The position numbers were made by a program, and so were the translations under genes. From assembly GCA_036785375.1 (NCBI GenBank), contig JAWMAR010000136.1, positions 372,001-436,000 of the forward strand: a stretch of 64,000 nt of DNA. Reading direction: 5' to 3'. Positions 207-36,200 of the stretch are shown here, in pieces; the stretch's first letter is position 1; every line of letters begins with the position of its first letter. The notes beneath the pieces were generated by a model. It did not search any database. It worked only from the letters and a program-made list of their open reading frames with translations, and was not told where the DNA came from. Source of the DNA: Leucoraja ocellata. Its lineage: Eukaryota.

Positions 207-240
207 GGTCTGAAGAAGGGTTTCGGCCCGAAACGTTGCC
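207..240 (+). ncRNA. Putative minimal type I hammerhead ribozyme motif
   Basis: CUGAAGA core, extra A, stem II GGG-uuucgg-CCC, GAAA, palindromic ACGU in place of stem III, UH, stem I GGU/GCC; activity untested. Confidence 0.55.
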
Positions 241-338
241 TATCTCCTTCGCTCCATAGATGCTGCTGCACCCGCTGAGTTTCTCCAGCTTTTTTGTGTA
301 ACCTTCGATTCTCCAGCATCTGCAGTTCCCTCTTAAAC
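207..338 (+). mobile_element. Short Penelope-derived non-autonomous element with hammerhead-like 5' motif
   Basis: gtCTGAAGAagggtttcggcccGAAACgttgcc...gatgctgctgcacccgctgagtttctccagc...ctgcagttccctcttaaaca; near-identical copies at 12399, 33562, 51763. Confidence 0.8.
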
Positions 339-1330
339 ACCAACTTGTTCTATTTGATCTTATATGATTGTGCACGCCAGGTTGATAGCATTCACCGAAA
401 CAGGGCGGACCACGTGAAGGTTGCAATCTCCCACCCCAATCAGGGTGGATGACAACGAACAACGAGAGAATGTAGTATAATGCAGAAATTGTTTTAAACC
501 TGCGGAGCACCTAAGCATAATTAACATCAGGCTTTAATATGCAAGCAATTACAGCAATATAAACTATTTGTATGTGATGCTGACAAACAGAATATTTAGA
601 TGACAGAAATGGCATAACAATTGACGTGTAGCAAACCCATGTTACAAAATGTAGGGAGGAATCACTGAATCTCCTCAAAGATAATCATTTGGAACATTTT
701 ATCGGATTCTAAATAAATATTGGAATATTTGCATAAAATACAAAGACCGTGGAAAAGAGCAACTATGGTTATTTGTACTTGGTTACATTGGACAAACAGA
801 CACAAACACTCATTCATTTGGGCATTTAAAAGAGCCATGTGCTTTAAATAGTAGCTCAAAGAATGGATGAAGATACAGTATTACACAGGTCTTAAAAGGT
901 GTATATAGAAATATATTAAAGAATCTGGAATTTATCTGACTATATGATTCATGAGAAAGTGGTAGATGTATTTCAAGAACAAAAGTTATTTTTTATTGCA
1001 GAGGAACATAATATATACATATAAAATCACAATCCATGGTTTTAATTGAAGACTTGAAAATTGAGAGGACTGCAAATTGGAGATGAAAACCAGGATATAT
1101 ATATATATTGGTCTGTAAAAATAATTCAATCAACAAAGTTAAAGAGCAGCAACTTGAACACTCTTAAAGTATCAATTACTGCATATTTCATTTCTGGTTC
1201 TTAGCTGCTCAATCGAAGTGGAGGCCAATAAAAAAAATACTACGTCAGTGCTGTCACCAAAATGTGAAGTGTGGAAAGCAAGCAACATGAACTGCTGTAA
1301 CATTGACCAAACATATTGATCTATTATAGA

Positions 1331-1472
1331 AGATAGACACAAAATGCTGGAGTAACTCAGCTGGACAGGCAGCATCTCTGGAGAGAAGGAATGTGTGACG
1401 TTATGGGTCGAGACCCTTCTTCATATTGTGTGCATCTTTGGTGTAAACCAACACCTGCAGATCCTTCCTACA
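1331..1472. mobile_element. Penelope-derived short element, inverted arrangement, degenerate
   Basis: gacacaaaatgctggagtaactcagc...gacccttcttca followed by a plus-oriented tail taaaccaacacctgcagatcctt. Confidence 0.65.
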
Positions 1473-2148
1473 CATTGATGGATGAGGGTGTTCTTTACTG
1501 GAGCTGGGGGAAGATGGCACTTAGCAAATCTTAAAAGATCGTAATAATTGAAGAAAATTGATTTTAACTACGATACTGACTAGTATCTGCCAAACAAACT
1601 AATAAGTAGTTCAAAAGACACAAAGTGCTGGAGTAATTCAGCGGGACAGACAGCATCCCTGGAGAAAGTGGATAGGTGACAATCTGTGTCTTCAGACTTG
1701 CGTGGAATAAATAGTTCAGTATTGGTTTTAAGTTATTTCAGTGATTTAGAATCAGATTACTCATTCTTGATAGAAATATTTTTTTTTTTGACGAATACGT
1801 CTTCAGATTAATAAAACTACACTGTTTTAGCTCCTGAATATATACGTAGATGAACATGTTTTAATGCAAGGGGATTAATAATGCAAATATGTTGCCATTT
1901 TGTTCTGGACTTTGCTTTTGAGATTACACAAACCAATGTCACCATGGTGGAAATGTGCACCATGTATTTATTTCAGAAAAACAAAGCAATTTATTCTCAG
2001 GTTTGCTAATTGTGCCCATTATGGAAATTTTATTCAAGGAAATTAAAATATTTAATCGCTTCCATGAGGGTACAGAATATTAATAAGTTATTGTTTCATA
2101 TGTTTGATTAAAGGAGTCCTATCATAGGCTAAACATTGAGACTATTAC

Positions 2149-2288: not shown

Positions 2289-5200
2289 CTGGAAGGAGAG
2301 ATAGATTTTAAGGTACTTGTAAAATTACACAAAAAGATACAACTGCCAGTTTAAAACTAATAGAATGATTTGGTCTATCAAATAATTCCTAAAGTGGAGC
2401 ACGTAACATATCATTTGATCTACTATGTTACACTCTTGTACTTGGTATGTTTGTGCTAATGAATAGCAGGATTTATCACTGAACTGTGTGCAAAAAGGAA
2501 TTTCATTGTAGTTACGTACACGTGACAATGAAGTGCCATTGAAACACAAGGTGCTGGAGAATTCTGACAAACAAAGTATTTAACTTACCAGTTTTAAAAT
2601 GTGCCATTATGTGCAGAATAAAAACAATAAACCTTCCTGCATTGTTGAGCCAAGTTGACTTGATGTACAGTATCCTTTTGTTAGCATCATAGTAAAATCC
2701 CTTGTTGTATGACCTATTTTGGCAGCAGGTAGCTTGTTCATTGGGAACACTGTCGGCCATGAGAAGGGTTAAAGGATTGTGGTTACAGCTACTGTAGAGT
2801 AGGTGGACGATAGAACACCCATATTGGTAGATCACAAAGTGGCGTGGGCTCAGGTTGCCCAGATCAGTTGGAATGAGTCGCTCATCATTCAATGAAACGA
2901 GATATGGTAGATTATCACCGCGATCTATAAAGAGAAACATAATGTTAAGTACCACGAGGCAATCAGGAGGTAAGAATGGATTCACGCAATGAATATGTCA
3001 AAGGTTTTGAAACTATGCTATCAATCCAGTAGTTGTGGTTAATTCTATGAGAAATGACTGTTGGATTCTATCTGTCAACTTCCTCTGTCCAAGTAACTTA
3101 AAGTTACGAGTTGGAGAGCTTTCAGTCAGAGGGGGAAATTGTGGAAGCCAGTTTCAGGCAGGAAAGGTTCCTCATCCCATTTATTTAGCGATTGGCTCTA
3201 TTCCACACAAAAGCAGGTAGCTTTGTTAAGAAATGTACTTGGAGCGAACAGGCAACCGAAAGTTTAAAAAATATACCAATCACAAACAAATATTACAATA
3301 AAGGTGAATACATACAGCCAGTATGAGACAAAATTAGTTGTCTCTGACCAATAATTGTACAATTAAACTAAGCTTATTTTAATTGAGATTTTATTTAATA
3401 CATACATGAGGCATTAATTCAATAGTAATTTCTCAATTTGTATTGGAGTGACGAGTTTGCCTAATATCGCACCCTACCTGCGTTGATGTCATGCTGAGGA
3501 TTTATTAATGTTTGTTTAATTTCTTCAAGTCTTTTCAGAAGAGGAGAGGATAGTAGGATCTCAGTTAGCTTCTCATTGTAAACAGAGATTGAAGCTGGCA
3601 TTGACACCACTTCTGCATAACCAAAACACATAGATATAATGACATGCATCATTTCTGATGTTTCTCTTACACATTTCTCAGAGCACATCCACATCATCAC
3701 ACTCTATAGTTAGTTGGCAATACACACGCAGATGCTATGATATGAAATCAACAGCACACAAGGTTGTCAGTTGGAATCTTCAGGACAGAAATTTGCCAAA
3801 CCAGCTAAAATGACCAGAAGGTGTTGTTGCCATTACGTCCCAATTGCTTGGCTAATGTTAATGAAGAAAGTGATTTGGAATTGCTGCCTTGTCTAGTACA
3901 CAGGCAAATCCAGTCCCACACAGTCAATGTTGGAAGGAACTGCACATGCAAGTTTATACCAAAGATAGACACAAAATGCTGGAGTAACTGAGTGGGTCAG
4001 GCAGCATCTCTGTAGAAAGGGAACAGGTGATGCTTTGGGTAGAGTCTGGGGACAGGTCTCAACCCGAAACATCACCTATTCCTTTTCTCCAGAGATGTGC
4101 TTGATCCGTTGAGTTACTCCAGCACTTTGAGTCTAAGTCACACAGTCATGCTTTCCTCAGAATGAATAAACAAGGAACTGCAGATACTGGTTTACACAAA
4201 AGGGCACAAAGTGCTGGAGTAATTCTGTCTGAAGAAGAGTCCTGGTCTGAAACATCATCATGATGTCCAGAGATATTGCTTGGCCCGCTGAGTTACTCCA
4301 GCACCTTGTGTAGTTTTAAGCTTTCATCAGGGTTGCTCTCACCCTCCTATTGCATCTTCTCTGGAGGTATGATCTTAACATGGATTATGCACAGGCCAGA
4401 GTTCCCACAGCACTCGAGATGAAATTCAAACTGTGCAGCCATGTGAATATTTCTAGCTTCTTGAACGACTCACCACAACCAGGAATGGCCACAACAAGGA
4501 TTAATTCTTGAGCAAAAGAAGAAGAAAAGTCCTGACCCTAGATGGCACCTGTTCATTTCTTTCCATGGATGATGCTTCACCCAATGAGACCCTCCAGTAG
4601 TTTATGTTTGCTCAAGAGTCCAGAATCTACAGTTTCTTATGTCTCTCAGTTGAACTCTTGACCTATTCTATTAACCAGGTCTGCCAGGAAGTCTGTGGGT
4701 GTGTTTTAGTTTCAGAACTTTGAGATGCGGAGGGATCTAGACATCCAATGGCATGAATTGCAAAATACCACAGCAAGTAATGAGGAAAGCTAACAGAACA
4801 CTGACAGTTATTGCCAAGGCAACTGAGTACAACAGTAGGAAGGTAAAGGAAAGACCCAAAGTGTTGGAGTAACTCAGCAGGTCAGGCAGCAACCCTGGAG
4901 AACATGGACAGGTGACGTTTTAGATCGGGACCCTGTGCCCCAAAAGGTGACGGTTAGGGTCCTGACCCGAAAAGTCACCTGTCCATGTTCTCTAGGGATG
5001 CTGCCTGACCAACTGTGTTACTCCAGCATTTTTTGTCTTTCATTGGTAAACCAGCAATTGTAGATCCTTGAATCTACATTTTGAATGCTTCAGTTAAGTA
5101 GGACACTCGTGAAACATGGAAAATCTGTGAACTTCAGAAGGTTGTGGCGGCCAAATTGCTAAAGATATTAAAGAATGACAGACAAATTTCTGGACATAAA

Positions 5201-8200: not shown

Positions 8201-11200
8201 AACGTGAGATCGCAATTTTTTTCCCTTTTCGCAATACTGGGCTTTTGAGCTGGCTGCTATTGGTACAACGGATATATTTGTTACCTTTCATTGTGTCCAG
8301 AGGTTCATTATTAGTGGTGGTTGTGGTTTCCAACTTGTCTACTGTTACCCATTTTCCTTCTATACTTGGGAATTCATAAGGGTTTAAACATTCTAACATA
8401 TCCTAAAGTAAAAAATAAACATTTTTTGGAAGATTTAGAATCTAAAATTCAATAGAATTCGCAACTATTCTTGAATGACATCAGAAAGCCTATCTTCACA
8501 CAAAGGGTAATGAAAAACCCATGTATCTTGAATTTCCTAGTGAAAATTCTATGAAATTGACAAGTATTTTTCTGGAAAAATATATCGAGGGATATGAAGT
8601 AAAAGGAACATGAATTATAAATCAAACACAACCTGGATGAAGTTGAGAAGTAAAACTAGATTAGAACCAAGTAGGTTGTCTTTCTACCCTGTAATTTGGT
8701 GGCAGTGAATGGGTAAAGAAGGATAGTTATGGTTGGGGATTGTCAAGGGAGGGGCAAGGAGCCTCGGGACATTTTGGTGTGGGACAGAGATATGGAGAGA
8801 TAAGTTGCCAAAATTGAACTTGAGACATCCGGGGTCAGGACATTATCAAAGTCAGTGAGGACATCAGAAGTGTCATGGATGGAAGTGAAGAGTTTGAGCA
8901 ATGAGAGAAGGCATAGGAAACAACTGGACTAAGACAGGGTTAAATAAATGATCCATTAGAGTTTGTTCTGCTTGTGGATCTGAGTGTGATGTAGAAGTGA
9001 GTTGTGAATGACCTGAAAACTGAATACGATAACAGGCGATGAATTATAAAAAGTACACGGATGATTTCACATCAGAGTTGAGTGGGATTGAATAGAACAG
9101 GTCTCCATTCTCTCAAGTCATTTTGGGCTCATAAAGATGGATGATGAGATGTTACCCTTGGATGGAGAATCTTGAACTAGGGGAACAAGCTTTAGATAAT
9201 GATAAGATTTGACGTTAAGATCAGGAGGAATTTCTTCATTTAGGGGCTAAGTCACGTCATGAAATTCTCTGATGTTCAAATCAATGAGCACATCAAACAA
9301 GACTGAGACTGATAACATTTGTAATCTGGGGAAATTAACAATTATGCAGAATTGTGATTAATCAGCGACCATCCTGTAGAAGGGTGGGTCAGGTTTGAGC
9401 AGCTGTATGCCTAATCCATCCCTTATATCATGATCTTACCTATCAACACTCAATGTTTCAGCATCAGCTATGATTTTTGAACTGTAATATAATGTAATAA
9501 CTGAATATGTATTATTACTGTGGAGGTTATCATGCAAGATTTTTGACCTTATTTTTAAAAGTCTATACTTTAAAAAAAATAAGCATTTTGAACCTTTAGC
9601 TCCTGCATCTGAAGGCTGATATGTCGATAAAATGCCTGCAGGTCACTCTTCTGTTTATTCAGCTGAGAAGCAAGGTGTAGGTTCTGGTCCTCCAGTTTAT
9701 CAAACAAGGTGCGGACACTAAAATCCTCCAGTTCAATCTCCTGTGCTCTTTTAGCTGTTAAAACATAAAACCTGCAAAATACCTGTTCTTGTACATTAAT
9801 AAACAGTTGACTATATAATGCAGTAATGTTTTCAATCTTTACAGGTGCTGAATTCTGATATTTGTTCCCTTCCCAAGTAAATTCACTACCCATAAAACAA
9901 AAATAATAATGGCATACAAAATGTACAATTCAGTACTGCCCTTAATGTCCTCCAGTTGCTCCAAACCTTCAGCCCGGCAGAATGCTGTAACTCTGGGACA
10001 TAGGTAAATATAGGGGTGAGTTTGGTCAAGAATTTAGAAACGTGATCTAATATTTGACTTTTTTTTTTAAATGTGAAAAGTGTACATGAAAGCAATAGGG
10101 TAAATCATGTGAATTATCATATAGCTGCTAAATTTGTATAAGATAATTATAAACAGTTGAATAAGGGGTGGGAATTAATAAGCTTTGGCTTCTTCCTGCT
10201 CCTTTTCGGACACATACAATTTCATATATTTATAGATATTGTTTATGACATTTTATAAATATTCTTGTTTTGTATTTTGTATGCTGTTACACTTGCTTTT
10301 TATTCTTTTATTCTGTTCGAAATAAAGAATTAATAAAAAAAGGAAAAAAAAAAAAAAAGCAGGACAACAGTTTGGCACTTCAATGATCAATTCACCTGAA
10401 TACAGCTGTGGTTTTCCTGATATCCCTTACACAGCGAATAAAATCTTAAGTTATCACTGTGTTTACTCCCTTCGCAGATTGGAGATGACAAATGTGATTT
10501 ATGATCCAGGATTACATTCTGAAACTTGGTTAAAGATGGCACTGTCGACAGTGGGAGAACTCAGGCCATTTTGGAACTGCATGGATGCAGAGAGACTTTA
10601 TCTGGAATCAGTTGGAGTTTTGTGATGGGATCATCTCCAATACCGAGCAGCGACAAACTCATGGCATTCAGTATGAAGAGCGTAATCTCCCAGTTCTGCA
10701 GAACCTTCTCTGAGAGCTTGGTGAGTGTCAGCCCTCTGGTCTTTTCATCTACGTTACTCCAGCACTTTGTGTTTTCTTTTGTAAACCAGCATCTGCAGTT
10801 CCTTGCTTCTGAAGATCTGAACCCAGTGGCGACGCTAAATCCTACGAATTTTTATTTTTGTAAAAATATTCTTACAAACAGAAGTACTGTAAAATAAATG
10901 AGCTGCTATATAAATAGGTGAATGATAGAAAATATGCCGATAATAGTCATAAGGCATCCTATTAATATAACAAGGCTGGAGAGTAGCTACTTTGTTTTTA
11001 CCTATTATGTGGGTTGACTCTTCTGTTTCTGATCCTTCTCCGGCACCTCGGGGTCCAAGAGCTTCATAGAAATCCAAGCTAAGAGAAAATATTGCATATT
11101 GTCACCGAACTGATTTAACGCACAAACCACAAGGAAATCTACAGTCCCACAGCTCCAGTTGCCTGAGTTTGATCCTGGCCTGTATGGCATTCTCCTTGTC

Positions 11201-14200
11201 AACGTCTATTGCCCCTGAGTGTTTCTGTTTCCCCCCACACCTCAAAAAATGTGTGGGCAGGTAGGTTAATTGGCCACTATAGATAGCACCTAGTGTTCAG
11301 ATGAGAGGTGGATTGTGGAAGAGTTAGAGTCATGGAGTTATACAGCATAGAAACAGGCCCTTTGGTTGAACTTGTCCATGCCAGCCAAGTTGTCTTCCTG
11401 AGTTGATCCCGTTTGCCTACATGCGGCCTATATCCTTCTGAGCCTTTATCATCCATGTACCTGTAAGAATGTCATTCAAACATTGTATTTCTTCCCATCT
11501 CTACAGCTTTCTCTAGCAACTGGTTTCATATACCCAATATCCTCTGTGTGATGTATTTGCCCCCAGGTCCCTTTTGAATCCTTGTGAATCTGTTCAGTAC
11601 CCTTTCTCAATTAATGGGACATCTTGGTTGCATTGGGCAAGATGGGCCAAAGGGCCTGATTCCATGCGGTGCGACTATAACTCTAGGAAACAGGCATTTG
11701 GTCTGATGGAAAGGCCCTGTCAATAGTTCCATCAATAGGCCACCTTTGGTAGTGAAACAAAGAGCATTTCTTAGATGGAGGAAGCACACTACAATAGCCA
11801 AGGTTATGCTGCATTAGGGAACCAACATACTGTACAACTGTGCCAACATTTACCAAAGGCATTCACAAACCAGGAAATGTTATGACATTACTTTGCTACT
11901 CAAAGGACTGAATATTTTAGCTGCCACAAAGAGCTTCCTAGATAAATATATTTCCTTAAGTGTCAAAGAAAATCATAGGACCACATCGTAAAACAAGGGA
12001 TGATCTTTGTGGATTTAACCTCATTATCGGAACTGTGTGGTGCTAGTTTTTGATTAGTAGAAGCTTTACTGATTCAGCTACCTCTTGCTTACCTATCTTT
12101 CATTATGACATATCCAGGTGGGATGTAAGGTTCCCCCAAACTGCGCCATTTTGGTTTCCACTTCTGCATGGGATTTAATGAAGACTGGTCAGGCTTCAAC
12201 ATCAGGGCTGCCACTGTGAACATTGCAGTCATCACAGCCAGGACACTAAGAGTTCCTGAAGCAAACACCAGGAAACATATATTAACATTCCTGTATCTCA
12301 ATTATATAAATCAACTATAAATATAAAGATTTAAGGACTGAAACGAAAAATGCAAGTTATCATAAAGCATTGATCAAACTCAATAATATGTATATGATGG
12401 TACACAAAAAAGCTGGAGAAACTCAGCGGGTGCAGCAGCATCTATGGAGCGAAGGAAATAGGCAACGTTTTGGGCCGAAACCCTTCTTCAGTCTGCACCC
12501 GCTGAGTTTCTCCAGCTTTTTTGTGTACCTTCGATTCTCCAGCATCTGCAGTTCCTTCTTAAACAATATGTATATGATTATTATATCATGTAAAAATATT
12601 GCATGCTAAATGAATATTCCATGTGCAACATCGTCTTTTTAAGGCATAAAGGTCATTTGTGAAAAATAGTTTAATATTAACAGTGGCACAGTTGTAGAGT
12701 TGCTGCCTTACAGCACCAGAGTCCCAGGTTTGATCCTGACTACGGGTGCTGCTTGTACGGAGTTTGTACATTCTCCCTGTGACCCGCGTGGGTTTTCTCC
12801 GAGATCTTTGGTTTTTCCCACACTCCAAAGACGTACAGATATTTAGGTTAATTGGCTTGGTGCATGTGCAAAATTTGTCCCAAGTGTGTGTAAGGTAGTG
12901 TTCTCTAGTTTTCATAAAACATAGGATTCATGTGTAAAAATTGAAATTCTTGCTTTCCAATAGAAACTACTGCAAGGGACTTTATCTAGGTTCCTTCCAG
13001 GTACAGTCGAGAGATTTGCATGCATGACAAGGATTTTTACACATCCTAGCAAACTGATCTCCTGTTGCTTGTTTGGTTGTGATATTTAACTCACTGCTGT
13101 GTCTAGCCTTTAAGGTCACGCACTCCCCATGGTGATCTACATAATTGCTACAGTTTGTAAATTTCTCAGGTTCACTCCAAGATTAATTGTGCTGGACTGA
13201 ATCCAGTCATTTACTAGCATGGTTCGTTATGTAGGTGAGCAATCAAGGGACTGATTGTACGTGTGTGAGAGATGCGTATTGAAATAAGTAAATATCAAGT
13301 AAATCTCAATTCTATCATTGGCGAGAAGGCTTTAAAGTTTCTTGCTTATAATTTAACTCCATTGCTGGACTGTTATCTCGATCACTGGAACTCATTCTCT
13401 CTCACCACTTATAGATGTGATTTTTGTTGCTGTAAGTAGGATTATAATTGTGGTGGAATGATCCGAGTAAATGTATCAACATGTTGGCTCATGGTGTTCT
13501 GGGGATTGTCAAGTCTTTTCAGAATGGCCACAATTTCTTAAATTAATAAAAATCCCGAATTGAGTTGAATGGGTGGTGAATCTGTGGAATACTTTGCCAC
13601 AGAAGGCTTTGGAGGCCATCAATGGGAATTTTTAAGTCAGAAATCGATAGATTCTTGTGTAGGAAGGGATTGCAGGTGATGATTTAAACCGAAGATAGAC
13701 ACCAAAAGCTGGAGTAACTCAGCGGGACAAGCAGCATCTCTGGACTCAGACAGCTTAAAGCAGGTTGTCTATGTTAAATCTTGACCTAGGGAACTGACTG
13801 GGGTTTCAGACTACATTTTGAAACTCTATCAGTTACCTCATATTTTATGGATTACTTCGAAGAGGAATTATTTTTTACATTACAAAATTAGAATAGGACA
13901 TAAAATGCTGGAGTAACTCAACAGGTCAGGCAGCATCGCTGAAGAACATGGATAGGTGGCATTTCCAGTCAGGGCTCTTCTTCAGACTCTCCTCGAATTA
14001 GGATTAGAATTCTGAAGAAGTTGAAAGGAGCTGAAACGTTGCCTATCCATGTTCTCTGGAAATATTGCCTGACCCGCTAAGTTACTGCAGCACCTTTTAT
14101 CCTTCTTTGTAAACCAGCACCGACAGTTCCTTGTCTCTACTCTAAAGCTAGAACAATGTTTACCTGTAATGAAGACCCAGTCTGGAGTCAGGTTGAGATT

Positions 14201-17200
14201 TTGTCGTTTTAGAATTCCATGTCTCAACAGTTGGAAGGGAGAGGATGGCTGGACAGATAAAGCAGCGTCACATTCTGCATTAAACCTGCTGACACTTACA
14301 ATCAGTGTGCGCTCAGCTTCTGCATTATCATGAAAGACGAACTTCCCAGGTTCCATGAAAGCATGTGCAAATCTAGTATAAAGGAAAATAGTGTTATTCC
14401 AGCTATATTTATGATAATGTTTCAGATGCAGGGGTCAGCCTTTCAGCCACTTCTGCCTGCACTCCCTGTCAGGCAGGGTATGACTGACACATTAACAGCT
14501 CTAATTACATGAACCAACCACAAGTTCTTAGATTCCATCAACATTTTTTTTACATTTCATATACATTACAACTGAGACTCCAGAGTCTTCATAGATAGAG
14601 AATTCCAACAATCCACTACCCCTCCTCCTCCCCTGTGAAAAAAATATTTTTGGATGGCCAAACACCTACATGGAGACTACGACTGGACATCCAGCAACCA
14701 GCCAAGTAAAACACCATTCTTGTGTCGATTCTGTTAAGCCCTATAAAAATTTTCAACGACATCTCATTGGCTCAATTCACCTTTATCGTAAAACCCATCT
14801 CAGCAATCAATCTGATGAAGCCACAGGACAGTCCCACTGTTGCAAGTGTACCCTTCCTTAGGAAGGGAGCCCCGACCTGCATACCATATTTCAAGTGCAA
14901 TCATACTGGGGCTTGATATAATGGTGGTAAAATATCTATGAAGTGCTACATTTTATTACACAAAGTCCAAGTGAGTTAGTGATGGTGTATGATGTCAAAT
15001 TTACTGCTGAGCAAATTCTCTGGCACTGTAAAAAATTACTGAAGTGACTTATAATTCCAATAAATATTTCAGAACAATGGATTTTAAAATAAAAATAACT
15101 TAAATTTATAATATCTTGGCTTCTAAGTTAATCTTGTACATTCCATTGTTAGTCAGTGTTCTATGAAATATGATTAGAACTCTGGTTTGCTGTTAACGAC
15201 AAAGTTGTAATGTGATTCTCAGTTAATTTAGCATGATGTCTTCATGGTTGCTGGATACCAAGAATTCTTTGAAAGAAATAATATTAAAGTGGTGCAGCGG
15301 TAGAGTTGCAGTGTCAGAGACGTGGGTTCGATCCCGACTACGGGTGCTGTCTGTATGGAGTATGTACATTCTCTCTGTAACTGCATGGGTTTTCTCCAAG
15401 ATCTTTGTTTTCTTCTCATACTCCAATGATTCAAAGGTTTGTAGGTTAATTGGCTTGGGTTTGTATACTTCGTATAAGTGTAAATTGTCCTTAGTATGTG
15501 CCGGTTAGCGTTAATATGTTGGGATCACTGGTCAGCGTGGACTCGGTGGACCAAAGGGCCTGTTTCCGTGCTGTATCTATACAACTAAACTAAAAAAAGG
15601 GGAGACCATGCGGGAGAGATTGGAGTGGGAATAAGAGAAACAAGGGGAGAGAGAGTGGATGGTTTGAGTGATAGTGAAGAGTGGGTGTGAGTGATAGTGA
15701 GAAAGCGGAAGGCTAAGGATGAGAGTGATGTGAGTGAAAGCACAAATGTGCACCCATGCCAGAGAATGCATTTGAATGTCCGTTAGTTTTAGAAGATAAT
15801 TATCATAACCAGGATACTCCCTGCTGTGGCATCAGGTCTATAATTGTGCTACTTCACCAGAGTTTAGAGCTTAAAAATAGTCAGAATGGAAACTATTTTC
15901 TGACAGGCAGTAAATAAAACACTTTATTGTACAATTATCAATCAAGGCCAAACACACAAGGTTACAGATATGGAATATGGTCACCTGGTGATGTTGACAT
16001 TAGTTTCCCTGATAAAATAATCCAACTTCCTGAAGGATCCAAAATCCCACTCTGAATTTGTGTTGAACAGGTGGTCTTTTTGGTAAACAGGGTAGTGACC
16101 CAAACTTCGATCTGACAAAGAGAATTAAAGAAAGACTGCTTATTATGAAAGATATGGCCAGTCCAAAGTAATTAACTGAATGTAAATAGGACCTCAATAT
16201 CATATCAATGAAAAGCCAAAGTATGTCTCTATTTGTTGTTTGCTCTGGTCCGCCAACCTGCACTTCAACCAGGAATACATAATGTGTGTGCTGCTAGGAG
16301 ACCTATTCATGCAATATTGTTGCATATTTTATATTTCTTTAAAATCTTCTTACAATATAGATCGCTCATTTGGTCCATTGAGTCTATGCCACTTTCAGAA
16401 CATTCTAATCAATTCCCCATCTATTTTCTGTGACCCTGTTCTCTCCCAATGCCGGTCAATACTCTCTCCCTCACCAATTTATCTGCCACTCTCCTATGTA
16501 AACGGGCAAACTCCCATAGCCAATTAATCGACCAGCACATCTTCGAAGTGTAGGTGGAAACACATCCAGTCATTTGGGGAACATGCAAACTGCACATTGA
16601 CTGATAGTGCTCAAGGTCAGGATTGAACCTGGCTTGCTGCATCCCTGGAGAAACTACCCATGTACTCCAGAGATGCTGCCTGATCTGCTCAGTTACTCCA
16701 ACACTTTGTGTCCTTTTGTGTATTAACGAACATGTGCAGTTCCTTGTTTCAACATCGATACTCACTGCTTTGGTGGATGTTGAGCTTGAAGAGGATCAAG
16801 TCATTTGGTTTTAGGCAGACAATGGGGTTTGGAATTTTGTGAACTCCTCCGTGCAAGTGGGTGAGAGCGGTCCTTTGCACGTGTCCTCGTGTTTTTGGCC
16901 GATGCCGTAGATGTCCAACTATTTCAGGCTGCTCCATCTCTGCACAGGTAAAGATGAAAGACAATATTTAAGAATGGATTGTAATCGCACTGATGAAATA
17001 CACTTAAAGGATTATTTGTTGATCAAATTAGGTTTTAAACTAGGCTTTGAATACATAACAAATAAACAACGTTCAGGCTGCCTTCAACACTTACTAATGA
17101 GGTACTGAGGTACACCAGGGCTGCCAACTCTCACGCTTTGAGCATGACACTCACGCATTTCAGCCAATTCTCACGCCCTCACGCTGAAGACAGAATTCTC

Positions 17201-21200: not shown

Positions 21201-24200
21201 TATTTTTGTATGTTCTCTGTATCTCTGATGCATTCAACCATTATCAGTCACATTCCAGTCAGTTACTGACCTGCGAGGAACTCCTCAACTGCATTCTTTC
21301 CTGACAAAATCCAACCAAAAATTCCAGCAGGCTCAAAGTGGATGAACTGGACTCTCACATTGTCTTCAAGTTTACTGTGTTCATCTGGCCCAAGCACATC
21401 CGCCACAACCTGAGAACATAAAACACATCAAGAACGCTTGCCAAGGCAAAAAGTCACTAGATTAAATGTGTACCATTTTTAGTTTAATCTCTCTTTTTAT
21501 TTTAACTTTCGTTAACCAGGAAATCTGCAGTTGATTAAATTATCATGTTCATTCACTTGACTGCTCAGTAGAAATCTATTTCTAGTCGGGTGCAATAATC
21601 GCAAAATGCACCCTGGAAAGAAAGATCTAATCTCCTGTCAAATATTACTAGATAATTGCTATTACCTTCTGGGATCCTGTCTGGTACCCATGTACAATTC
21701 TATAAAAATAGAGCAATAACTCAGAAGGCACCAGTTAGTTTATACATGCTTTGTAAAGATGAAGTCTTACTAACGGCAGAGTGCAAGGGCCTGGAAGAAT
21801 TGATGCTAGAGGGAGCAGTAAGATGATATTTTTATTGTCTCACCCACTCTTTCTGGTCCTTGGCCATTCCATTTTGAACGGTTAAAACAAGTTTTCCATT
21901 TGTTTGGGTACCTGCAGAAATATTCAGCGTTCTAGCCACACAAACTCTGTCACAGAGCTCCTCAGCAGAGATGTAATTATTACAATGACATCTGGAAGGT
22001 AAGAGAAAGATTGTGCATTAAAATTTCAGATGGAATATAAATCCATGACTTAAGCTTTGACAACAAAAAGTACATAAATTAATAGTACTGTGTTCAGTTT
22101 TCTTTTCTTTACTTTACCTCCTTTCTTCGAAAAGTATGCAAGAACGTAATGGATGAGATCTTATGACAGCTAAATACTCTCCTGTGCTTTATCCAAAGTT
22201 CATGCTCAAAGCTCCACCTTTGATCAGAAAGGTGATTGGATGGTTTGTCTACCTCAAACTGATTTTCCCCATTCTGCAGTGCAACACAACCAGAACCAAA
22301 CACAGTTCAATTATTTCCATGGCAAAGATCAGCCAACTTAAGGTTCTTGACCTGAAACATCACCCGTTTAATCCATCTATAAATGATGCCTGATCACCTC
22401 CAGCACTTTTTGGTTTGCAGTCTAAATAGCTGTTTCATTCACTGAATAATTGGAGTCACTGATGTCTCTTTTAGTCACCATTGCAATAATCCATCCAGAA
22501 CTATTGTACTGTCTTCAGATGCTTTAAATTATTCTATGATCATTACTCTCATAACACTTACCATTCCACCAAAGGGAACAAATGGCTTGTCAGTTGTTCA
22601 TTCTAAACATGAGAATGAATGCGTTTTGTTAGCCAAAGGTACTTGGGAACGGGGCAAATGCAAGTCTTTGTAGTTAAGATGTAAAAACCAGGATTCTCAT
22701 TGAACAATTCAGAGAGCTGTGGTTCTTTCTAAATACATAAGTAATAACCATATAACAATTACAGCACGGAAACAGGCCATCTTGGCCCCACAAGTCCGTG
22801 CCGAACATTTATTTCCCCCTAGTTCCATCTACCTACACTCAGACCATAACCCTCCATTCTTTTCCCACCCAAATACCTATCCAATTTATTTTTAAATGAT
22901 AAAATCAAACCTACCTCCACCACTTCCACTGGAAGCTCATTCCACACAGCTACCACCCTCATGTTACCCCTAAACATCTGTCCCTTAATTCTGAAGTCAT
23001 ATCCTCTTGTTTGAATCTTCCCTCCTCTCAATGGGAAAAACTTATCCACGTCAACTCTGTCTATCCCTCTCATCATTTTAAAGACCTCTATCAAGTCCCC
23101 CCTTAACCTTCTGCGCTCCAAAGAATAAAGACCTACCTTATTCAACCTTTCTCTGTAACTTAGTTGCTGAAACCCAGGCAACATTCTAATAAACATCCTC
23201 TGAACTCTCTCTATTTTGTTGACATCCTTCCTATAATTGGACGACCAAAATTGTACACCATGCTCCAGAATTGGTCTCACCAATGCCTTGTACAATTATA
23301 ACATTACAACCCAACTTCTATACTCAATGCTCTGATTTATAAAGGCTAGCACATCAAAAGCTTTCTTTACCACCCTATCTACATGAGATTCCACCATCAG
23401 GGAACTATTCACAGTTATTCCTAGATCCCTCTGTTCAACTGCATTCCTCAATTCGCTACCATTTACCATGTACGTCCTATTTTGAGTTGTCCTGCCAAGA
23501 TGTAGCACCTCACACTTATCAGCATTAAACGCCATCTGCCATCTTTCAGCCCATTCTTCCAAATGGCCTAAATCTCTCTGTAGACTTTGGAAATCTACTT
23601 AATTATCCACAACACCACGTATCTTAGTATCGTCTGCATACTTATTAATCCAATTTACCACACCATCATTCAGAGCATTGATGTACATGACAAACAACAG
23701 TGGACCCTACACAGATCCCTGAGGCACCCCACTAGTCACCGGCCTCCAGCCTGACAAACAACCATCCACCATTACTCTCTGGCATCTCCCATTCAGCCAC
23801 TGTTGAATCCATCTTGCTACTCCTGCATTAATACCTAACAATTGAACCTTCTTAACCAACCTTCCATAAGGAAACTTGTCAGAGGCCTTACTAAAGTCCA
23901 TATAGGCAACATCCACTGCTTTACCCTCATGAATTTCCCTAGTGACCGCTTCAAAAAATTCAAGAAGATTAGTCAAATATGACCTTCCAGGCACAAATCC
24001 ATTTTGACTGTTCCTAATCAGACCCTGTTTATCCAGATGCTTATATATATTATCTCTAGGTATCCTTTCCATTAATTTGGCCACCACTGGTCAAACTAAC
24101 AGGTCTAGGTTTACTCTTAGACCCCTTTTTAAACAATGGAACAGCATGCCCCCCATCCTCTGGCACTATTCCCGTTTCTAATGACATTTGAAATATTTCT

Positions 24201-27200
24201 GTCATAGCCCCTGCTATTTCTACACTAACTTCCCTCAATGTCCTAGGGAATATCCTGTCAGGACCTGGAGACTTATCCACTTTTATATTTTTCAAAAGTG
24301 TCAGTACTTCTTTTTCTTTGAATCTCATAGTTTCAATAGCTACTCTACGTGTTTCCCTTACCTTACAGAATTCAATATCCTTCTCCTTGGTGAATACCGA
24401 AGAAAATAAATTGTTCAATATCTCCCCCGTCTCTTTTGGCTCTGCAGATAGCTGTCCACTCTGTCTCTCTAATGGACCAATTTTATCCCTCGTTATCCTT
24501 TTGCTATTAATATCATTGTAGAAACCCTTTGGATTTACTTTCACCTTACTTGCCAAAGCAGCCTCATATCTTATTTTAGCTTTTCTAATTTCTTTCTTAA
24601 GATTATTTTTACATTCTTTATACTCCTCAAGCACCTCATTTACTCCATGCTGCTTATAATTATTGTAGATCTCTCTTTTTCTGAACCAAGTGTCCAATTT
24701 CCCTTGAAAACCATGGCTCTTTCCAATTTTTACTATTTCCTTTCAACTGAACAGGGACATAATTAAGTATGAAAGGCAAAAAACCCTCCATTGCGGTCAC
24801 GCCTGTTTTAAAGTGGTGTGGTAGGTGCTTTGTGCAGAAGGCAGAATAGAGAATCTTGAAATAAATGCCATTCATTTTACATGATTCACTTGGGAATTAG
24901 ACAGAGGTTTATATTTAGCACGAACATGGGTCTAATTAATGAACCAGTCAAGCTCCTGCAGCTATCCTGCATATATTCAGGTCAGGCAGCATTTGTGGGG
25001 AAAACCTTAACATGCAGAGCAAGGATGAAAGGGTGGAGGATGAAACAGAAGGTCTGATCTAAGGCAGAAGGGATTGAATGACAAATGTAATGTTAATGAA
25101 AAGAGAAGGAGAGCAATAGAGGGACAGGACATCTGAGGAAATGTAGATAAGAGAAGCAGAATTATTATTGGAAATGAAAAAGGGGTTATCAGACATTTAT
25201 AATTGAATTGTTAATGCTGATTATCAGACATTGTTAATTTCAATTACTGACTTTGGAAAGTTGTGGAGTGCTGAATGAGAAGATGTGTTGCTGTGAACGT
25301 ACTTCAAGCTGCAGTGGAATAGAGTCAGAGGCCAGGCAGAGAGAAGCCAGGATTACAGGCGGAATTAAAGTGACAGGTGATTGGAACATTGGAGTCTTGA
25401 CAAACAAATTGAATGGTCAATGAATGATAATTATAAAGTAACCCAATGAGTATCAGTTGCAAGAAATTTCTTTCTGAAGAGCTGTAACTAACATTCCCAG
25501 TTCTACATCCAGCTTTCCCCCAGGTTCGCCACAAGCTGGAGTGCAGTTATGGTGCTCAGGGAGAACACATCTTCTCGATGATGCCAATCGTGCCTCATTG
25601 GTGCCACAGCGATCATCCACCTGTGGAGAGACAGTGTACAATGCAGGTCACAAACAGAAAAGAAAAACAACGTGCAGAACCACAAAAAAATGAAAGAGAA
25701 CCAAGACAAGGAAATGGTCGATCATCTCCACTCAAACATTAATTCCTTGTAGCATCTGCCTCGATCAGCATTTATATCAACAGATTTGCTGTTGCTCTCA
25801 TTTCAATAGGCTCAGGAATGAATGATACACTGTATAAGAAAGTACAAATCTGAGAATAAGTAACTCCAAACCTATGTAAAAGTATAATGATACCATATTT
25901 TGTTTAAGTAGTTGGTTTATGGATTTTTGAGTCTCTAGTTTTGCCCTTGTTATTCCAGACCATTTTTTCCTTTTCAGTGAACCTTACAACAGCATTAAAA
26001 ACATGTATCAGATACTTCAATGAACTGGAAAATATTTTTGGATATAGACACAAAATGCTCGAGTAACTCAGCGGGTCAGGCAGCATCTCTGGAGAAAAGG
26101 AAATCCGGGTCAAGACCATTCTTCAGATTGAGAGTCAGGGGAGAGGGAAACTAGACGTATGGAAAGGTACAAAACAAATCAGAGCTGGCAACGATGGGTA
26201 AGGAGCCCACTATGGTCCATTGTTGGCTGTGGAGGAGGTGATAATGAAGGATCTGAATTGTGAAATTAGTCTGAAGAAGGGTCTCAACCTGAAACGTCAC
26301 CCATTCCTTCGCTCCATAGATGCTGCCTCACCTGCTGAGTTTCTCCAGCATTTTTGTCTACCTTTGATTGGTCCAGCATCGGCAGTTCCTTCTTAAACAG
26401 TGAAATTAGCAGGTTGACTAGGTGGGGGAGAGATGGAGAAAGAGGGAATGGAAGGGTTACTTGAAATTGGATAAATCAATATGTATACCGCTGGGTTGTA
26501 AGCTGTCCAAGCGGAATATGAGGTGCTGTTCCTCCAAGTGAAAGCGGGGAACTAAATCAGTAGATGATGTGAGACTTTAAATTTTAGCTCTTGATCTGAT
26601 GGCTACATTTGCAATACTGAGCATAACTGGCTGACTCAAAATTTAAATCGTATATCTTCAACAATAAAATTATCAGGACTTGTTGGTATCGTCCCTAAGA
26701 ACTTCCTCTTACCTCAGGGTGACAGTCCATGTCACTGTTGCTATCTGAGTTTTTCTGATCTGCCTCATTGTAGTAAACATAGCCAGTCTTACAAATACAT
26801 GACCCATCTGATTCCTGAAAAGCCCGATTCAAACCATGGCACGTGCATGTTGTGGAGCCTGAATGATGCAAGGATTGTTAAAGAGTGACATGAATATTGC
26901 CAACGTTCCAAAAGGCTTTCACAGCATCTGTACGTTTGTCTTTATTACCACCAAACTTATTGTCACAAGTTTCAGCACTATTTCTCCAAAGCATTGTGTT
27001 GGTCTTATAAAGAAAACAATGAAATAAACCCGGATTCCTTACAGGTGGCAACGTCACCAAGGACACCATGTCCACCAGCCAGATCTAAATATACTGAGTA
27101 ACTTTTTAATTTGTAAAAATGTACTTTAATTTTTATTAATTACTTCATTGCTTCCTTCTTAGTCAACAGCAGTCGCTGATACAGGTTGGAGTGCAAGTTA

Positions 27201-30200
27201 AGACTGTTCTTTCCATCTAATTTTTAGAGCAGTGTTACACTTGCCTTCATATTATTGGACCTCTTTCATTTCATTGGCCCCACTCATTGCTCACCTTGTC
27301 CCGAGTAAGAAGTACTTCCACATGGGAAACAAGCTGCTTGTGCAGGCAAGTGGTTGAATGTGTTATTAGGGCATGGGTGACATTCACGGAGATGCTTAGA
27401 ATGGCTGGTGTTCCCGTATGTCCCTGGGGGACAAGGCTTTGGCAAGGTGGTGCTTTCAGCACAATAGTAGCCTGCTGGACAGGGGTGTGACAAGTAGCTT
27501 GCAGAACCTGTGAGGAATTACATGGGGTGAAAAAATGATGAAAGAAAATTAGAGATGTGTATCATGGAGCTGTTCTTGACAGTTGAACTTCAAGCATATG
27601 GTGTTGACTATGTATAATACATCTTTTTTTGATATAACTTAATGATTTTTAATTATCATTTCATGAAACTCGGGCAGAGGTTGATCTATTGTGTATCAAT
27701 TGAACAAAATCACAGATACAGTGGGTCAGATCATACTTGACCACAACTGCATTCTGCACACACCACCCAACATGTCATCCCTCCTCCACTCCCCCTCCCA
27801 ATCCCTTATCTCAGGATGTTTTTTCCCTCTATCCGCTGATTCAGATGTAAGCAGAGCAGGAGCTCAGATGAGATAACATCTGACCTCAAGCAGGTCCTTA
27901 CTTATGCACTTGAATATGTATAAATTGTCAGCACAAAATGAAATTAGGATAATTTCTAATCTTGCATTCATTGCTGGCAGAGAGTAAATACATATTTTTT
28001 TGTGCTCTTGGCATGTTGTGCTCGGAATGCAGATATCTGAAATTCGTAAGTTTATTTTTGTGCTGTAACTCAAAGTACATAAAAATACCCCAGGGTGCAG
28101 CAAAGAGACAAGCTATTGGGTTTAAACAGTCCATATTATTATTATTATTATTATTTCACCACCAGAGCAAATGGTTGAACTCACCAAAGTGCTTGGATAA
28201 ACACTCCTCAAATACCTGCTCACAGCAATTCATCCCATCGCATGAGTCAACAAGAGAACTATTTTTAATGGCCAGTATCAAACAAGGTGGTGTTATTGCC
28301 CATATTATTTCTCTCAATATGCCTCACCTCCAGTGGGAGCAGACCTAATCTGCGGAACTAATGGAACGCTACTCAAACTATGGCAACTACACTTCAAAAA
28401 CCAAACCTCAACCTCAGCTGCAGTATGGAGAAGATGCTAATGTTTGCATATGCTCGAGGCTGACACCAAGTCATCACCAATTCTACTGAAGTAGAGAAGC
28501 GGTTACCCTTGCACTTGACATGTGCAACCATTCAACCCCTGTTGAACCCGTGTGCTCTCCAACATGGATTATTTATCATATTTTGGGAGTTAATTGGCAA
28601 GGCAACCATCGGTGATGCAATTTACCACTACCTTCAATGCATTCATTCTGATTTTGGTTAAATGAACTGACGGATATTTGGAAACCAGGACTTCTGAGAG
28701 ATAGCTCAGAACTCATGTTCTATTGGGCACTTATTTTCCCTGCCCTCTATAGTCTTTTGAGACCTGGACTACTAACAGCAGGCAGCTCAGGGTACTGGAA
28801 AATTACCATGACTTATGAACTTATGGAAACATGGCAGATATGGTCAGATTGCAGATGAATAGTCATTAACCTAGACTGGGGTGATGGACCTCAGGTTTAA
28901 TGGTTTAATCTTTGTTAAAGGAAAGGAACAAATTACTTGTGTTGAAAAAAAAAATCCTCTCGAACTGAATCCAACACATATTGAATAAATTAACTAAGGT
29001 GATCCTGGTCTGACGTACCCTTTGGACAATGGAAACCTGCTGGACACGGTCTGCAGTAGAGTTCGGCCGCGGAGTCACCTCGATAAGTTCCAGCATCACA
29101 GAGCAGACAGGCTTTCACCAGATGATCCCTCAACCCTGTCACGTTGACTGGCATGTACCCTCCATAACAGGGCAGCATAGAAGAACTATTAGCAGGACAG
29201 AAATACGGGAACACGCACCTACAACAAGAAAGTGGTTGAACCATGACAAAGTTGACAGGTTTTAAATTGTTCTTATTGTCATAGAAACGGCCTCTTTGAA
29301 AATCCTGCTGCATTCGAGACTCTCATTAAAGTAATCTAAAGTTCAGCAAGGTTAGAAGTTTCTATCACATCATTATGCTTGCTGTGACAGAATTAATTAT
29401 TCATTACTGTGAGTGAGTGGCAACCTGTGGGATATTATCACAGACCACAAGCATCTCAAATTGTTGAAGGGCTTCTTTTTAACCTCATTAACAATGTATT
29501 TTAGCGAATGGAAGCGAAAATGGAGGGGGTCAAGTAGGTTTGGTATCCTCTGTAGCAGCTCAATATTCTCACACTTCCAGCATAACTAATGTCTAAGAAG
29601 GAACGATAAATGTGCTGCCAAAGCTTTGCCTATACTGACAGTTTGCCCTTTAAAGAGTTGATTCTGAGTCATGTGTTTAGATATTACAAGTCACAATGCA
29701 CTTTTCTCATCCGTCTCTAAACATGTAGAATGAATATAATTGCAGAAATCAGAAATCACTTGTATTCTGACAAAAAAAACACCCCACTGTGCCAGAACAA
29801 CTTCTGTGTTTTTTTAAAAATCCTGAAACACGAAATCACTCACGGTTTGTCAAAAATTGCTGCTGATTAACACAGTATTGACAAGCCTGAAAGAAACTCT
29901 GGGATGTACATCATCAGTTCATAGAGATGCACAAGAAACTGCAGTTCCTCAGATCTTGAGGAAAAAAAAAACTCCAATATGATTGAAGTACTCAGCACAT
30001 TCGGCAGCATCTGCGGAGGCAACTGTGTCTCTTTCAGTAAACCAGGATCTGCAGTTGGTGTCCACACCAAAGCATGTGTATATAATATGTATATGCCTTT
30101 TTGACAGTTCCTCAAATCAACAACTGCCAACTCACACCTCATACATTTATTTTTTATTTGTTTTAGATACAAGGCCCTAGAATAAACAATATCACTTTCA

Positions 30201-33200: not shown

Positions 33201-36200
33201 ACCCAAAGAAATGTCCATTTGAATATCATTTATCAGAAATATCATTTTTTTAAGATGCCAGCCTTCAGTAACTGGATTTCTAGTTAATTTAATTTAAAAG
33301 TATTGCTTTTGGTCTAAGCTAGAAATACCTGCGTTGTTGCAGAAGTATCCTGGAGGGCAGGTCTGGCAAGCTGCCCGACTGGCTGCTCCACTGACATTGG
33401 AATAGGAGTGGACTGGGCACTTCTGGGGCCCACCAGGAAAATGATGCAAGGCCTGGATCTCTCCATCACAGAAATATCCACCAGGACAGCGATAAAGAAC
33501 GGGATCGCCTGAGTGCAGAGCATACATTTACTGTAACACTCTACAGAAGAGACTTGAAACATTGTGTTTAAGAAGGAACTGCAGATGCTGGAAATCTAAG
33601 GAAGACAAAAATGCTGGAGAAACTCAACGGGTGAGGCAGCATCTATGGAGCGAAGGAAATAGGCAACGTTTTGGGCCGAAACCCTTCTTCGGACTTGAAA
33701 CATTTACTGGCAAATCATCAACTAATGTTAGTAAAGCAAATTGTCATGTTTGCAGGTGCTATTTTAATTCCAAATTCAGTTCTTGAAGAATAGAAGGCAA
33801 AATATTTTTACCGCATGTTGCTTTCTAGTAAGTTAAGGTAAATCCCAAAAATCTATTTTGAGTGTTAACTTGTTTGATACCATGAGCAAACCACAAAGTG
33901 CTGGAGGAACTCCACGGCCAGGCATCATCTGTGGAGGGAATGGACAGATGAGGTTTTGGGTCAGGATCCTTTTTCAGTCTAAAGAATCGTCCCAACCCAA
34001 AATATCTGTCCATTCCCTCCAAAGATACTGCATGGCCCAGTGAGTTCCTCCAACACTTTGTGTTTTGCTCAAAGCTCCAGCATCTACAGTTTTTGTGTTA
34101 CGTATTTCGTACCTTCTTTGCACCAGTATCCAGGTGGGCATGGCTGGCAGTCCTCTTGCTGTCTGGCACCAGTCAGTAATCTAATTGTATTCGAAGGGCA
34201 GGGTTTGGTTACCTTCGTCCCCTCAGGACAATAGAAACCTGAAGGATTCCAGGGAGATTACATTCACTTTGGAATGGAAACAACTCACAAATAATTAATT
34301 TAACAAGAATTTTTCTTCAAAACTACTTTGTGTTTCTCCCATTTCCTGGTTGTAACTTTACGAGAACATCTGTAAAAATAGCAGGAAATCATTCCAAAGC
34401 TATCTATGGATTTTGCGGTTCTTCCATTAAATTTATTATTTATTAAACTTTATTTCGGACTCAAGGTCCAGACAAGGGGCAACATTACATAAAATGCATT
34501 GCATATTAAAAAATATCATGAAGTGCATATCATTAAAGCTACATTGGATGACCAAGAGAGAACTTAATTTTTCAGTTATTTTTAAAATAGAATGCACAAT
34601 TCACGTTGATAAACAACATGGATTGTTGGAATGTTTAAGTCATAGCTTTGGTCATTTAAGTGTAGTGTTTCCCCCATGATGCCAAAATGAATGGATAAGA
34701 ATTGCTGATGTTATTGTATGATATATTTTGTTAAAAAATAGCTGATTTGACCAATTATCAATCACTTATTCTGGCATCATGCTCCCACGTTCTTTCATTA
34801 ATTTCTCTGCTGAGGGAATTGGTGAGAATGTGAGGAGAATAAAAAATAGAATTAATATAGAAACGCAAATAGATTGTTGATGACTGGCGTAAATGTGGTG
34901 GGTTTTAGGCTCTATTTCTGTGCTGTAATTTTCTATGACTCTCTGATTTCTACTGAACATTATAATACTTTTCTAAATGGTTCATTCTCAGTGAATGTCA
35001 CCTTAATCATTCCTGACAGCAAACATCCTCTGGCTCCACACTACAACAACATTTCTAAGGTGGACTGTAACAATTTAATAGTTGTGTCTGGACAGGAACC
35101 AAGCTGCTTAATAATATATCTCGCATTGACAATATCAAGTTACAGATGTCTTAAAAGTCTGATATTGATTCATAGAATCATAGAACACTTTATGAGAGTA
35201 TAAAATAATTCTAAATGGCTCTGGAATTGATTTCACTTTGTCTTATTAAGTCAAACTTTATTCCAGTATACTAATCTGACAGCTAGAAGCCAACAGAGAC
35301 AATACCCTAGCAGTAAACTCACTTCTATGAAGTTTGTCATCATCTTTGCCTGTGTACCCAGACAACAGTAGGTCTGGCCCTCTCTCATTCTCCAGTTGAT
35401 ATATTTTCAGCAGACCCATTAGAATATGATACCTTATTGTCAATTTACATAATACTTAGAAGGAAGCCATTTAATCAATACCAGCTCACAGAGGAAACCC
35501 ATTCTCATGCTCCACTGAAAATGGATGAGAAACATTATGGAGTAATGGGCCTGGAATTGAGCCAAAGGGCCATTATTTATACAAATGAAACAGACAATGG
35601 ACATTTGAGATTCCCAGATCTTCCTCATTAAGCGACATTAACTTTCAATTTGCACGGTATTGAGCAAACAATATTTCCCAAGGACTTTTCACGAAGAACG
35701 TGTGAAATGTAGCACAGTCTAGTAACAGAATAGGTAGCAATCGGAAGGAAGAATACCCAGAAGCATGGACAAATTAAACCCATTTGCTTTAAGCATCTAG
35801 CCACAACACACACTGCATGGAGGCAATGATTACATTTGTAAATAAAATCAAATGTTGTTTGATATTATACCTGCAGGACACGGTCCAGCACACACCTGGC
35901 CCCAGATACATGGATTATTGTTAGTTGCGGCATTAGGGAGAACTCCATGAGGGGTAAAATTATAACTGCCAGCAAGACAGAAGTATCCAGCCGCGCACAG
36001 TCCTTGAATTCTTCCTTCACTGCAGAGACATACATTTTGAATTTCTACATGTGCACGTGAAAAATGATTACAATATTCATTTTTTGAAGCAAAAACATTT
36101 CTAAAGGTTATGATAATTTGTGAATATAATAATAGGATAAATAATGAGCAATAATCTATGTCCAAATAATAACCTTCGCACATCTCTGTTAAAGGTCTGC

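Follow-up and report, generated by a model that had tools for sequence, protein, structure and literature searches.

Dispersed heads of a Neptune-like Penelope element in Leucoraja ocellata carry a mostly decayed minimal hammerhead motif, a fixed 5' boundary and two alternative 3' ends

Penelope-like elements (PLEs) of metazoans carry minimal type I hammerhead motifs in their terminal repeats (Cervera and de la Pena 2014, PMC4209133), and the repeat described here has in common with them an extra nucleotide between A9 and G10.1, a G10.1-C11.1 pair and a palindrome (15.1/15.2-16.1/16.2) with no stem III loop. The published motifs are also mostly single and dispersed, with some opposite-strand pairs, and helix I is 2 bp long in D. 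virilis; these motifs showed no cleavage as monomers and cleaved poorly as dimers. Stem II has 4 bp here compared with 6-8 in the published examples, and the dispersed copies here differ in that their 5' boundary is fixed and their 3' ends fall at two set points. Cartilaginous fish are not named in the portions of that paper covered, and the comparisons with the other systems below likewise draw on portions of each source.

Neptune EN+ PLEs (Craig et al. 2021, PMC8557442) have a single ORF encoding a reverse transcriptase (RT) followed by a GIY-YIG endonuclease, with two Cys residues inside the GIY-YIG core and a CX2-5CxxC linker, all of which are found among the homologues identified here. 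Inverted terminal repeats and a 30-40 bp tail at one end are also shared. Unlike the described Neptune elements, head-only copies make up 20 of the 23 insertions at this locus, where no intact PLE ORF is present within 64 kb. The Anolis Poseidon element PAc (Frangieh et al. 2024, PMC11167929) is alike in its hammerhead at the head, its AT-rich targets, its uncleaved RNA substrate and its two RT start sites, which bound the tail about 110-150 nt downstream. PAc belongs to another PLE clade and most copies here lack a start codon at the core; the evidence for PAc is biochemical, whereas the evidence presented here is genomic. In Adineta vaga, Penelope elements (Arkhipova et al. 2013, PMC3846280) have head-to-head repeats in which the inverted arm is shorter by the tail, with 8-10 bp duplications and some insertions without a duplication, as seen here. 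The A. vaga repeats flank ORFs or captured DNA, while most two-arm units here hold arms only. Finally, animal non-LTR retrozymes (Cervera and de la Pena 2020, PMC7229834; Li et al. 2026 bioRxiv) are similarly non-coding, feature a type I hammerhead and are kin to PLE repeats, and the same literature places them in one chondrichthyan genome. They are defined by head-to-tail tandems, a complete motif in each unit and circular RNAs; the locus described here contains no such tandems.

The window analysed is a single stretch of 64,000 nucleotides from the Leucoraja ocellata assembly GCA_036785375.1. An earlier note on this DNA had proposed about 20 related copies of a non-coding retroelement that starts at a hammerhead motif. 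A profile built from 11 arms, which derives from the window's own copies and is blind to ends past the tail, identified 32 arms at E<=1e-4 (40 at E<=1), while the reversed window gave none. These 32 arms group into 23 insertions (Table 1), in agreement with the proposed abundance. The proposed near-identity of young copies applies to the arms at 208 and 12396 only (93-98%), as the remaining young arms are 83-93% alike. Within the suggested size range of about 100-230 bp, the 230 bp forms consist of two head-to-head arms and are not longer monomers. We found no published description of this repeat in the literature covered, and the family may well be catalogued in Repbase, Dfam or supplementary files, which lay outside that scope. 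A 31-base pattern had no match in viral or metagenome contigs. A 19-base pattern returned 26 loci with similarity that barely extended past the pattern itself (best 16.5 bits), and these were rejected as chance matches.

Table 1. Hammerhead motif, insertions and target duplications in the 64-kb window
Feature	Positions	Strand	Details
Minimal type I hammerhead	208..240	+	stem I 208-209 with 238-239, core 210-216, extra A 217, stem II 218-221 with 226-229, GAAA 230-233, palindrome 233-236
Predicted cleavage of this hammerhead	after 237		GUU
Focal young long head, 5' boundary to tail end	208..339	+	no duplication; absent at this site in organism C
36-nt PLE tail between short and long 3' ends	304..339	+	
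Old two-arm insertion	1330..1476		short arm minus, partly deleted long arm plus (E=0.002)
Old short head	1614..1705	-	13-bp duplication, 1 mismatch; 7-8 extra 5' bases
Old head-to-head pair	3927..4138		long minus arm, short plus arm; 10-bp duplication
Old head-to-head pair	4161..4319		deleted long minus, short plus; 11-bp duplication, 1 mismatch
Very old long head	4521..4645	+	
Old head-to-head pair	4846..5080		short minus, long plus; 21 unrelated bases between
3' half of long head	10750..10805	+	
Youngest head-to-head pair	12396..12565		short minus, long plus without 57 central bases
Duplication of 12396..12565 pair	12385-12398/12565-12578		14 bp, exact
3' part of long head	13661..13745	-	
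Old head-to-head pair	13891..14140		short minus, long plus
Long head with inverted-arm fragment	16630..16752	+	far end of fragment lost
Decayed short head	22340..22416	+	
5'-truncated PLE	26043..26546	-	last 29 GIY-YIG codons (26546-26460), 3' UTR, head to short end
Young long head inside older PLE	26269..26399	+	passes strict hammerhead descriptor (GUC)
Duplication of 26269 head	26260-26269/26400-26409		10 bp
Very old two-arm insertion	29931..30060		tail on both arms; second arm E=0.01
Young long head	33564..33694	-	duplication overlaps its first 3 bases
Duplication of 33564 head	33551-33563/33692-33704		13 bp
Old head-to-head pair, distinct subfamily	33883..34098		short minus, long plus; 2-base junction same as 59791
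Young short head	51762..51858	-	11-bp duplication 51752-51762/51858-51868
5'-truncated PLE	52777..53478	-	broken GIY-YIG 53417-53136, 3' UTR, long head 52907-52783
Inverted short arm of 52777..53478 PLE	53425-53481		whole unit within 11-bp duplication
Young complete head-to-head pair	59700..59921		short minus arm 59791-59700, long plus arm 59791-59921
Duplication of 59700 pair	59688-59702/59920-59934		15 bp, 1 mismatch
Old head-to-head pair	60478..60706		short minus, long plus; about 13-15 bases between
Long head with about 60 pyrimidine-rich upstream bases like ORF-bearing copies	63215..63405	+	no coding remnant found

Target duplications of 10-15 bp were detected at 9 of the 21 units tested, using a score of at least 9, a level seen in 3 of 400 random site pairs. 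All five duplications named previously (12385/12565, 26260/26400, 33551/33692, 51752/51858 and 59688/59920) are among them, as are four others, located at 1611, 3933 and 4168 and flanking the long copy at 52777-53478. The duplicated sites are AT-rich (31% G+C, compared with 39% across the window). The focal copy at 208-339 lacks a detectable duplication (its score is 6, which 50 of 400 random pairs also attain). Its 5' junction is spanned without difference by a contig of organism A, while in a contig of the related organism C with single-copy depth, 191 is followed by 339 after a few unknown letters; this absence at the same site indicates a recent insertion. A match in a contig of organism D that ends at 203 is suggestive only.

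The ends of these copies are highly constrained. Most arms (21 of 32) begin within profile positions 1-5, for which P is about 5e-19 under uniform truncation; of the other 11, several are arms of pairs with a central deletion or filler and the rest are decayed fragments. Across four sequencing runs compared with positions 1-1200 of the window, loose ends just before 208 were in every case the most numerous among those listed (556, 468, 481 and 86 contigs), so the boundary also holds beyond the window, and the shared 5' boundary claimed in the earlier note is well founded. Three young solo copies abut their duplications with no extra base. At the other end, 13 arms stop at profile positions 89-100 and 19 at 122-127, with none between, where one of the 19 long calls (4044-4192) is a joining artefact that is short, judging by its duplication. 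The short and long ends are 36-37 nt apart in four young long arms, and this stretch falls in the 30-40 bp range of PLE tails. By comparison, the ORF-bearing copies break at differing points within the endonuclease (26546 and 53417). PLE copies are mostly 5'-truncated, and dispersed single motifs were once read as probably related to truncated PLEs (PMC4209133), which would make the present copies random 5' truncations, or else solo repeats left by recombination, of full-length PLEs. Plain truncation is incompatible with a boundary that stays fixed across the window and four sequencing runs, and a recombination event between terminal repeats would retain the whole repeat including its upstream part. 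The boundary counts therefore refute random truncation, and we give this reading as a whole virtually no chance of being correct.

The same head terminates two minus-strand fragments of a GIY-YIG C-terminus, at 26546-26460 (E 3e-5) and 53417-53136 (E 3e-15), which verifies the suggestion that this sequence caps Penelope ORF remnants (at 26043 and 52785). The second of these, 52777-53478, is a textbook PLE insertion with a truncated ORF, a 3' UTR, a long head and an inverted short 5' arm. Another coding remnant (8023-8196) had 38 protein matches; the ten that were looked up include three from stingray or skate and three from whale shark. A search with one of these matches yielded 52 proteins, 734-958 aa long, many of which contain RT and GIY-YIG domains, and the full-length relatives have a single ORF in which the RT precedes a C-terminal GIY-YIG. 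The CX2-5CxxC linker is located upstream of GIY-YIG in 45 of these 52 full-length homologues and in proteins P0005 and P0008, and is degenerate in the window's own remnants. Among PLEs with a C-terminal endonuclease, this linker marks Neptune and Nematis and is absent from Penelope/Poseidon, according to the portions of PMC8557442 covered; it occurs in Nematis and Naiad too. The parent is therefore called Neptune-like, a clade assignment made via homologues as the window contains no RT core. By sequence comparison, the repeat is identified as the terminal-repeat head of a Neptune-like PLE of cartilaginous fish. The target duplications, the tail and the head common to ORF remnants all support the proposed PLE origin and mobilisation by a PLE RT/GIY-YIG protein.

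A full-length parent of the young clade was not found in the window or among the contigs listed. A 58-residue remnant had no match in a word-indexed protein search, no solved structure matched protein P0009, and the extended copies have upstream regions that could not be aligned to one another (best E about 0.04). The plus strand has three further decayed remnants of PLE coding sequence, at 7718-8223, 53609-53767 and 54099-54365. The region 53609-54365 comprises an endonuclease end, a weak head remnant (53986-54036, E=0.017) and a linker piece, resembles a partial tandem, and stands head to head with the 52777-53478 copy.

The hammerhead motif at 208-240 is present as the earlier note described, with a 4 bp stem II, a 2 bp stem I, a G10.1-C11.1 pair and a self-complementary ACGU that replaces stem III. 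An intact motif is nevertheless not a general feature of the copies, as only the arms at 208 (GUU) and 26269 (GUC) passed a strict descriptor (CUGANGA/GAAA core, extra base, palindrome and NUH) and 30 of 32 arms failed it; this descriptor had no matches in 200 shuffled windows. G12, which lies within a CpG, is replaced by A in 10 of the 20 arms that were aligned. In the same 20 arms, 81% of cells pair, compared with 16-44% in slid controls, but no stem covariation above shuffles was detected (0.231 versus 0.245, with 339-411 of 500 shuffles reaching the measures), a null that is weak since the copies are few and decayed. The cleavage-competent fold of the monomer is less stable than the minimum by 4.5-6 kcal/mol, and pairing of the palindrome between molecules contributes about -3 kcal/mol. 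The doubt voiced previously about activity, given a stem I of 2-3 bp, is supported, and the core is broken in most copies. An Rfam scan of the window at E<=1 returned nine weak matches and no ribozyme, and a scan of 150-500 returned one chance match; the Rfam models do not cover minimal motifs, so these outcomes do not count against a hammerhead. RNAalifold gave no consensus pair for 13 long arms and single arms did not fold better than their shuffled versions (z -1.06 to +1.04); we therefore make no claim of a conserved RT-binding structure.

The predicted cleavage site after 237 lies 30 nt inside the element, downstream of the 5' boundary, so the ribozyme would make neither end and the templates would be uncleaved RNAs. 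This bears directly on the retrozyme-like nature that had been proposed for the family, where dimeric hammerheads would cut tandem units into monomers and circles that are reverse transcribed. The type I motif, the size and the PLE kinship all fit described retrozymes (PMC7229834; bioRxiv 10.64898/2026.07.22.740005), and two contigs of organism C have a same-strand joint from 243 to 210 that places 34 core bases in tandem, a possible natural core dimer. Yet there is no head-to-tail array among the 14 tandem repeats listed for the window, neither end of the element coincides with the cleavage site, most arms fail the strict descriptor and covariation is lacking. In addition, retrozymes carry canonical type I motifs, as far as these sources describe them, while the motif here is of the minimal PLE type. 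The retrozyme-like claim is not supported by these results and is largely refuted for this window, and we regard a true non-LTR retrozyme as very improbable. In the Anolis PLE, the hammerhead needs protein and is dispensable for insertion (PMC11167929). As part of the explanation that we favour, the hammerhead is, on balance, likely to be cargo from the parent that is not maintained in the copies. Joints from 240-250 to 208 were also observed in contigs, with orientation not stated.

Eleven insertions consist of two arms arranged head to head, and 10 of these 11 combine a short arm with a long arm (P=0.005 if arms are drawn independently); the sole exception is 29931, where both arms have a tail. 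The arms overlap by 2 bases at the 59791 and 33977 junctions, while the other pairs feature 13-22 unrelated bases or deletions at the centre, and the junction fillers all differ between pairs. In 9 of 16 comparisons, the partner arm takes first or second place out of 26-27 arms, and the tree places both arms as sisters at 33883 and 4846, but partners are not always closest (ranks 17/7 for 13891 and 9/25 for 52785). In the youngest pair, the plus arm lacks the 57 bases between two CTG triplets (12491-12493), so the hammerhead of that arm is gone. Such central deletions, also present in several older pairs, are expected for unstable palindromes.

Based on the observed ends, duplications, pairing and kinship of the arms, the elements are probably head-only products of Neptune-like PLE retrotransposition, derived from short cDNAs that begin at two internal RT start sites. 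PLE RT has been reported to prime within its uncleaved RNA at two sites that bound the tail, while the protein nicks and extends both DNA strands, and the RNA must reach beyond the priming sites (PMC11167929); this two-site priming was demonstrated for the Anolis Poseidon element, a clade other than Neptune. According to a review account, PLE transcription begins in the upstream terminal repeat, so every PLE mRNA would carry the head, tail and binding region at its 5' end. We infer that the RNA starts at a fixed 5' point, an initiator-like site in the terminal repeat. Priming in cis on the head and tail at the 5' end of the mRNA would then yield a cDNA of 95 or 131 nt that extends up to the RNA 5' end, while priming at the 3' repeat would yield longer, randomly truncated copies. 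One primer per nicked strand, with one at each start site, would generate pairs of short and long arms, whose cDNA ends would be joined by 2-base microhomology or filler.

The boundary fits what we take to be the initiator consensus in 7 of 15 heads, including three with native upstream sequence, and its bases fit a splice acceptor equally well. The 5' boundary could therefore instead be a 3' splice site, or a processing or stop point, of the same parent, with pairs that arise by fold-back or antisense self-priming. Upstream-extended copies have a pyrimidine run and YAG immediately ahead of the core (52907 and 63275; the AG is changed at 26128), the D. virilis Penelope intron ends exactly at helix I, which is 2 bp there as well (PMC4209133), and self-priming on antisense RNA is how Arkhipova et al. 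read head-to-head junctions (PMC3846280), the published reading of such palindromes. The pyrimidine run is not specific, since the whole 3' UTR is pyrimidine-rich, and splicing would attach a common first exon to the RNA (46 nt in D. virilis), against which the three young solo copies abut their duplications directly and the pair fillers are all different. Fold-back alone also leaves the differing 3' ends in 10 of 11 pairs unexplained, and we consider this reading quite unlikely.

A different possibility concerns the source of the young copies. The young clade could derive from an independent SINE-like head-only source gene that is copied in trans by PLE protein with no ribozyme processing. 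None of six young insertions has an ORF or 3' UTR, and eight young arms form a clade (support 0.94) with nested diagnostic changes that excludes the three heads with upstream sequence. The head-to-head junctions at 59791 and 33977 recreate an initiator-like site, non-autonomous PLE derivatives exist (PMC8557442) and PLE terminal repeats can act in trans (PMC3846280). Set against this, the contrast between young insertions (0/6 linked to an ORF) and older ones (3/17 with upstream repeat sequence) is not significant (P=0.54), and nested subfamilies arise from successive autonomous masters too. In all four runs, the plurality consensus of loose ends before 208 finishes with an identical five-letter string, similar to the upstream flank of the extended copy 63275, a likeness that hints at longer relatives (agreement only 0.35-0.37). 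Furthermore, the Anolis priming RNA reaches past the tail (PMC11167929), and a head-only copy lacks that part. A separate source gene is conceivable but doubtful. Taken further, the elements could be a self-propagating minimal PLE parasite of 130-220 bp, very abundant in elasmobranchs, with a promoter at its 5' end that overlaps the hammerhead. Two-site priming would then occur on one RNA, with the downstream primer displacing the first cDNA, and the junction would rebuild the initiator on both strands. We regard such a parasite as unlikely; if it were real, the genome would amount to a very large natural archive of PLE integration intermediates.

A second high-copy repeat, at 437-341 on the minus strand, immediately adjoins the focal copy at its 3' end. 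This repeat begins with an HDV-type ribozyme look-alike that has 7 of 7 P1 pairs from the first base, 5 of 6 P2 pairs and 3 of 3 P3 pairs around a 7-nt loop, and it presumably resembles the CPEB3 ribozyme. The HDV-type architecture used for this comparison is that of PMC4908430, in the portions covered. At 387, 394 and 395, about 90% or more of the depth in three DNA-like runs disagrees with the window copy, and the majority letters restore a P2 pair and put C at the presumed catalytic position. Read by hand from the letters, the repeat may be of HDV type; the Rfam scan of 150-500 did not report it, and no second copy is present in the window. Organism C has this repeat but lacks the hammerhead insertion at this site. 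Were the ribozyme real, cleavage would generate the 5' end of the repeat, in contrast to the hammerhead family. Contigs of organism C also join 437 to 208 with six letters between, a possible composite of both repeats with orientation not stated, where the summed depth is 661 compared with about 47 for single copy, although summed depths are not copy numbers.

The elements sit in introns of a large host gene with cysteine-rich repeats, which is represented by many short minus-strand exons (for example, 27300-27500, 41399-41758, 50476-50787, 60102-60425 and 60807-61199) and has a weak Ephrin_rec_like match below the cut-off. The window also contains a broken non-LTR retrotransposon at 22819-24742 on the minus strand (RVT_1, E 3e-8) that is unrelated to PLEs, and 27-nt inverted repeats at 43101-43354 and 56775-56926 (200 and 98 bases apart) that are MITE-like and unrelated to PLE heads. 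A tandem region rich in TG contains two runs of N, at 17716-17888 and 17979-18144.

Dispersed single motifs, opposite-strand pairs, one-end tails and head-to-head palindromes are already in print, and the additions of this window are the fixed 5' end and the rule of short plus long arms. As each ingredient has been published, the gain is a sharper test and not a new system. The window bears on how PLE integration is completed, on why insertions are inverted with a tail at one end and on the role of the hammerhead. The dense head-only insertions with fixed ends would correspond in vivo to the short cDNA produced in the 2024 in vitro assay. Genome-wide counts of such heads would test two-primer synthesis against self-priming, and whether cleavage sets the ends. 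For annotation, the insertions carry a warning, as a motif or a palindrome alone does not make such copies retrozyme monomers or MITEs.
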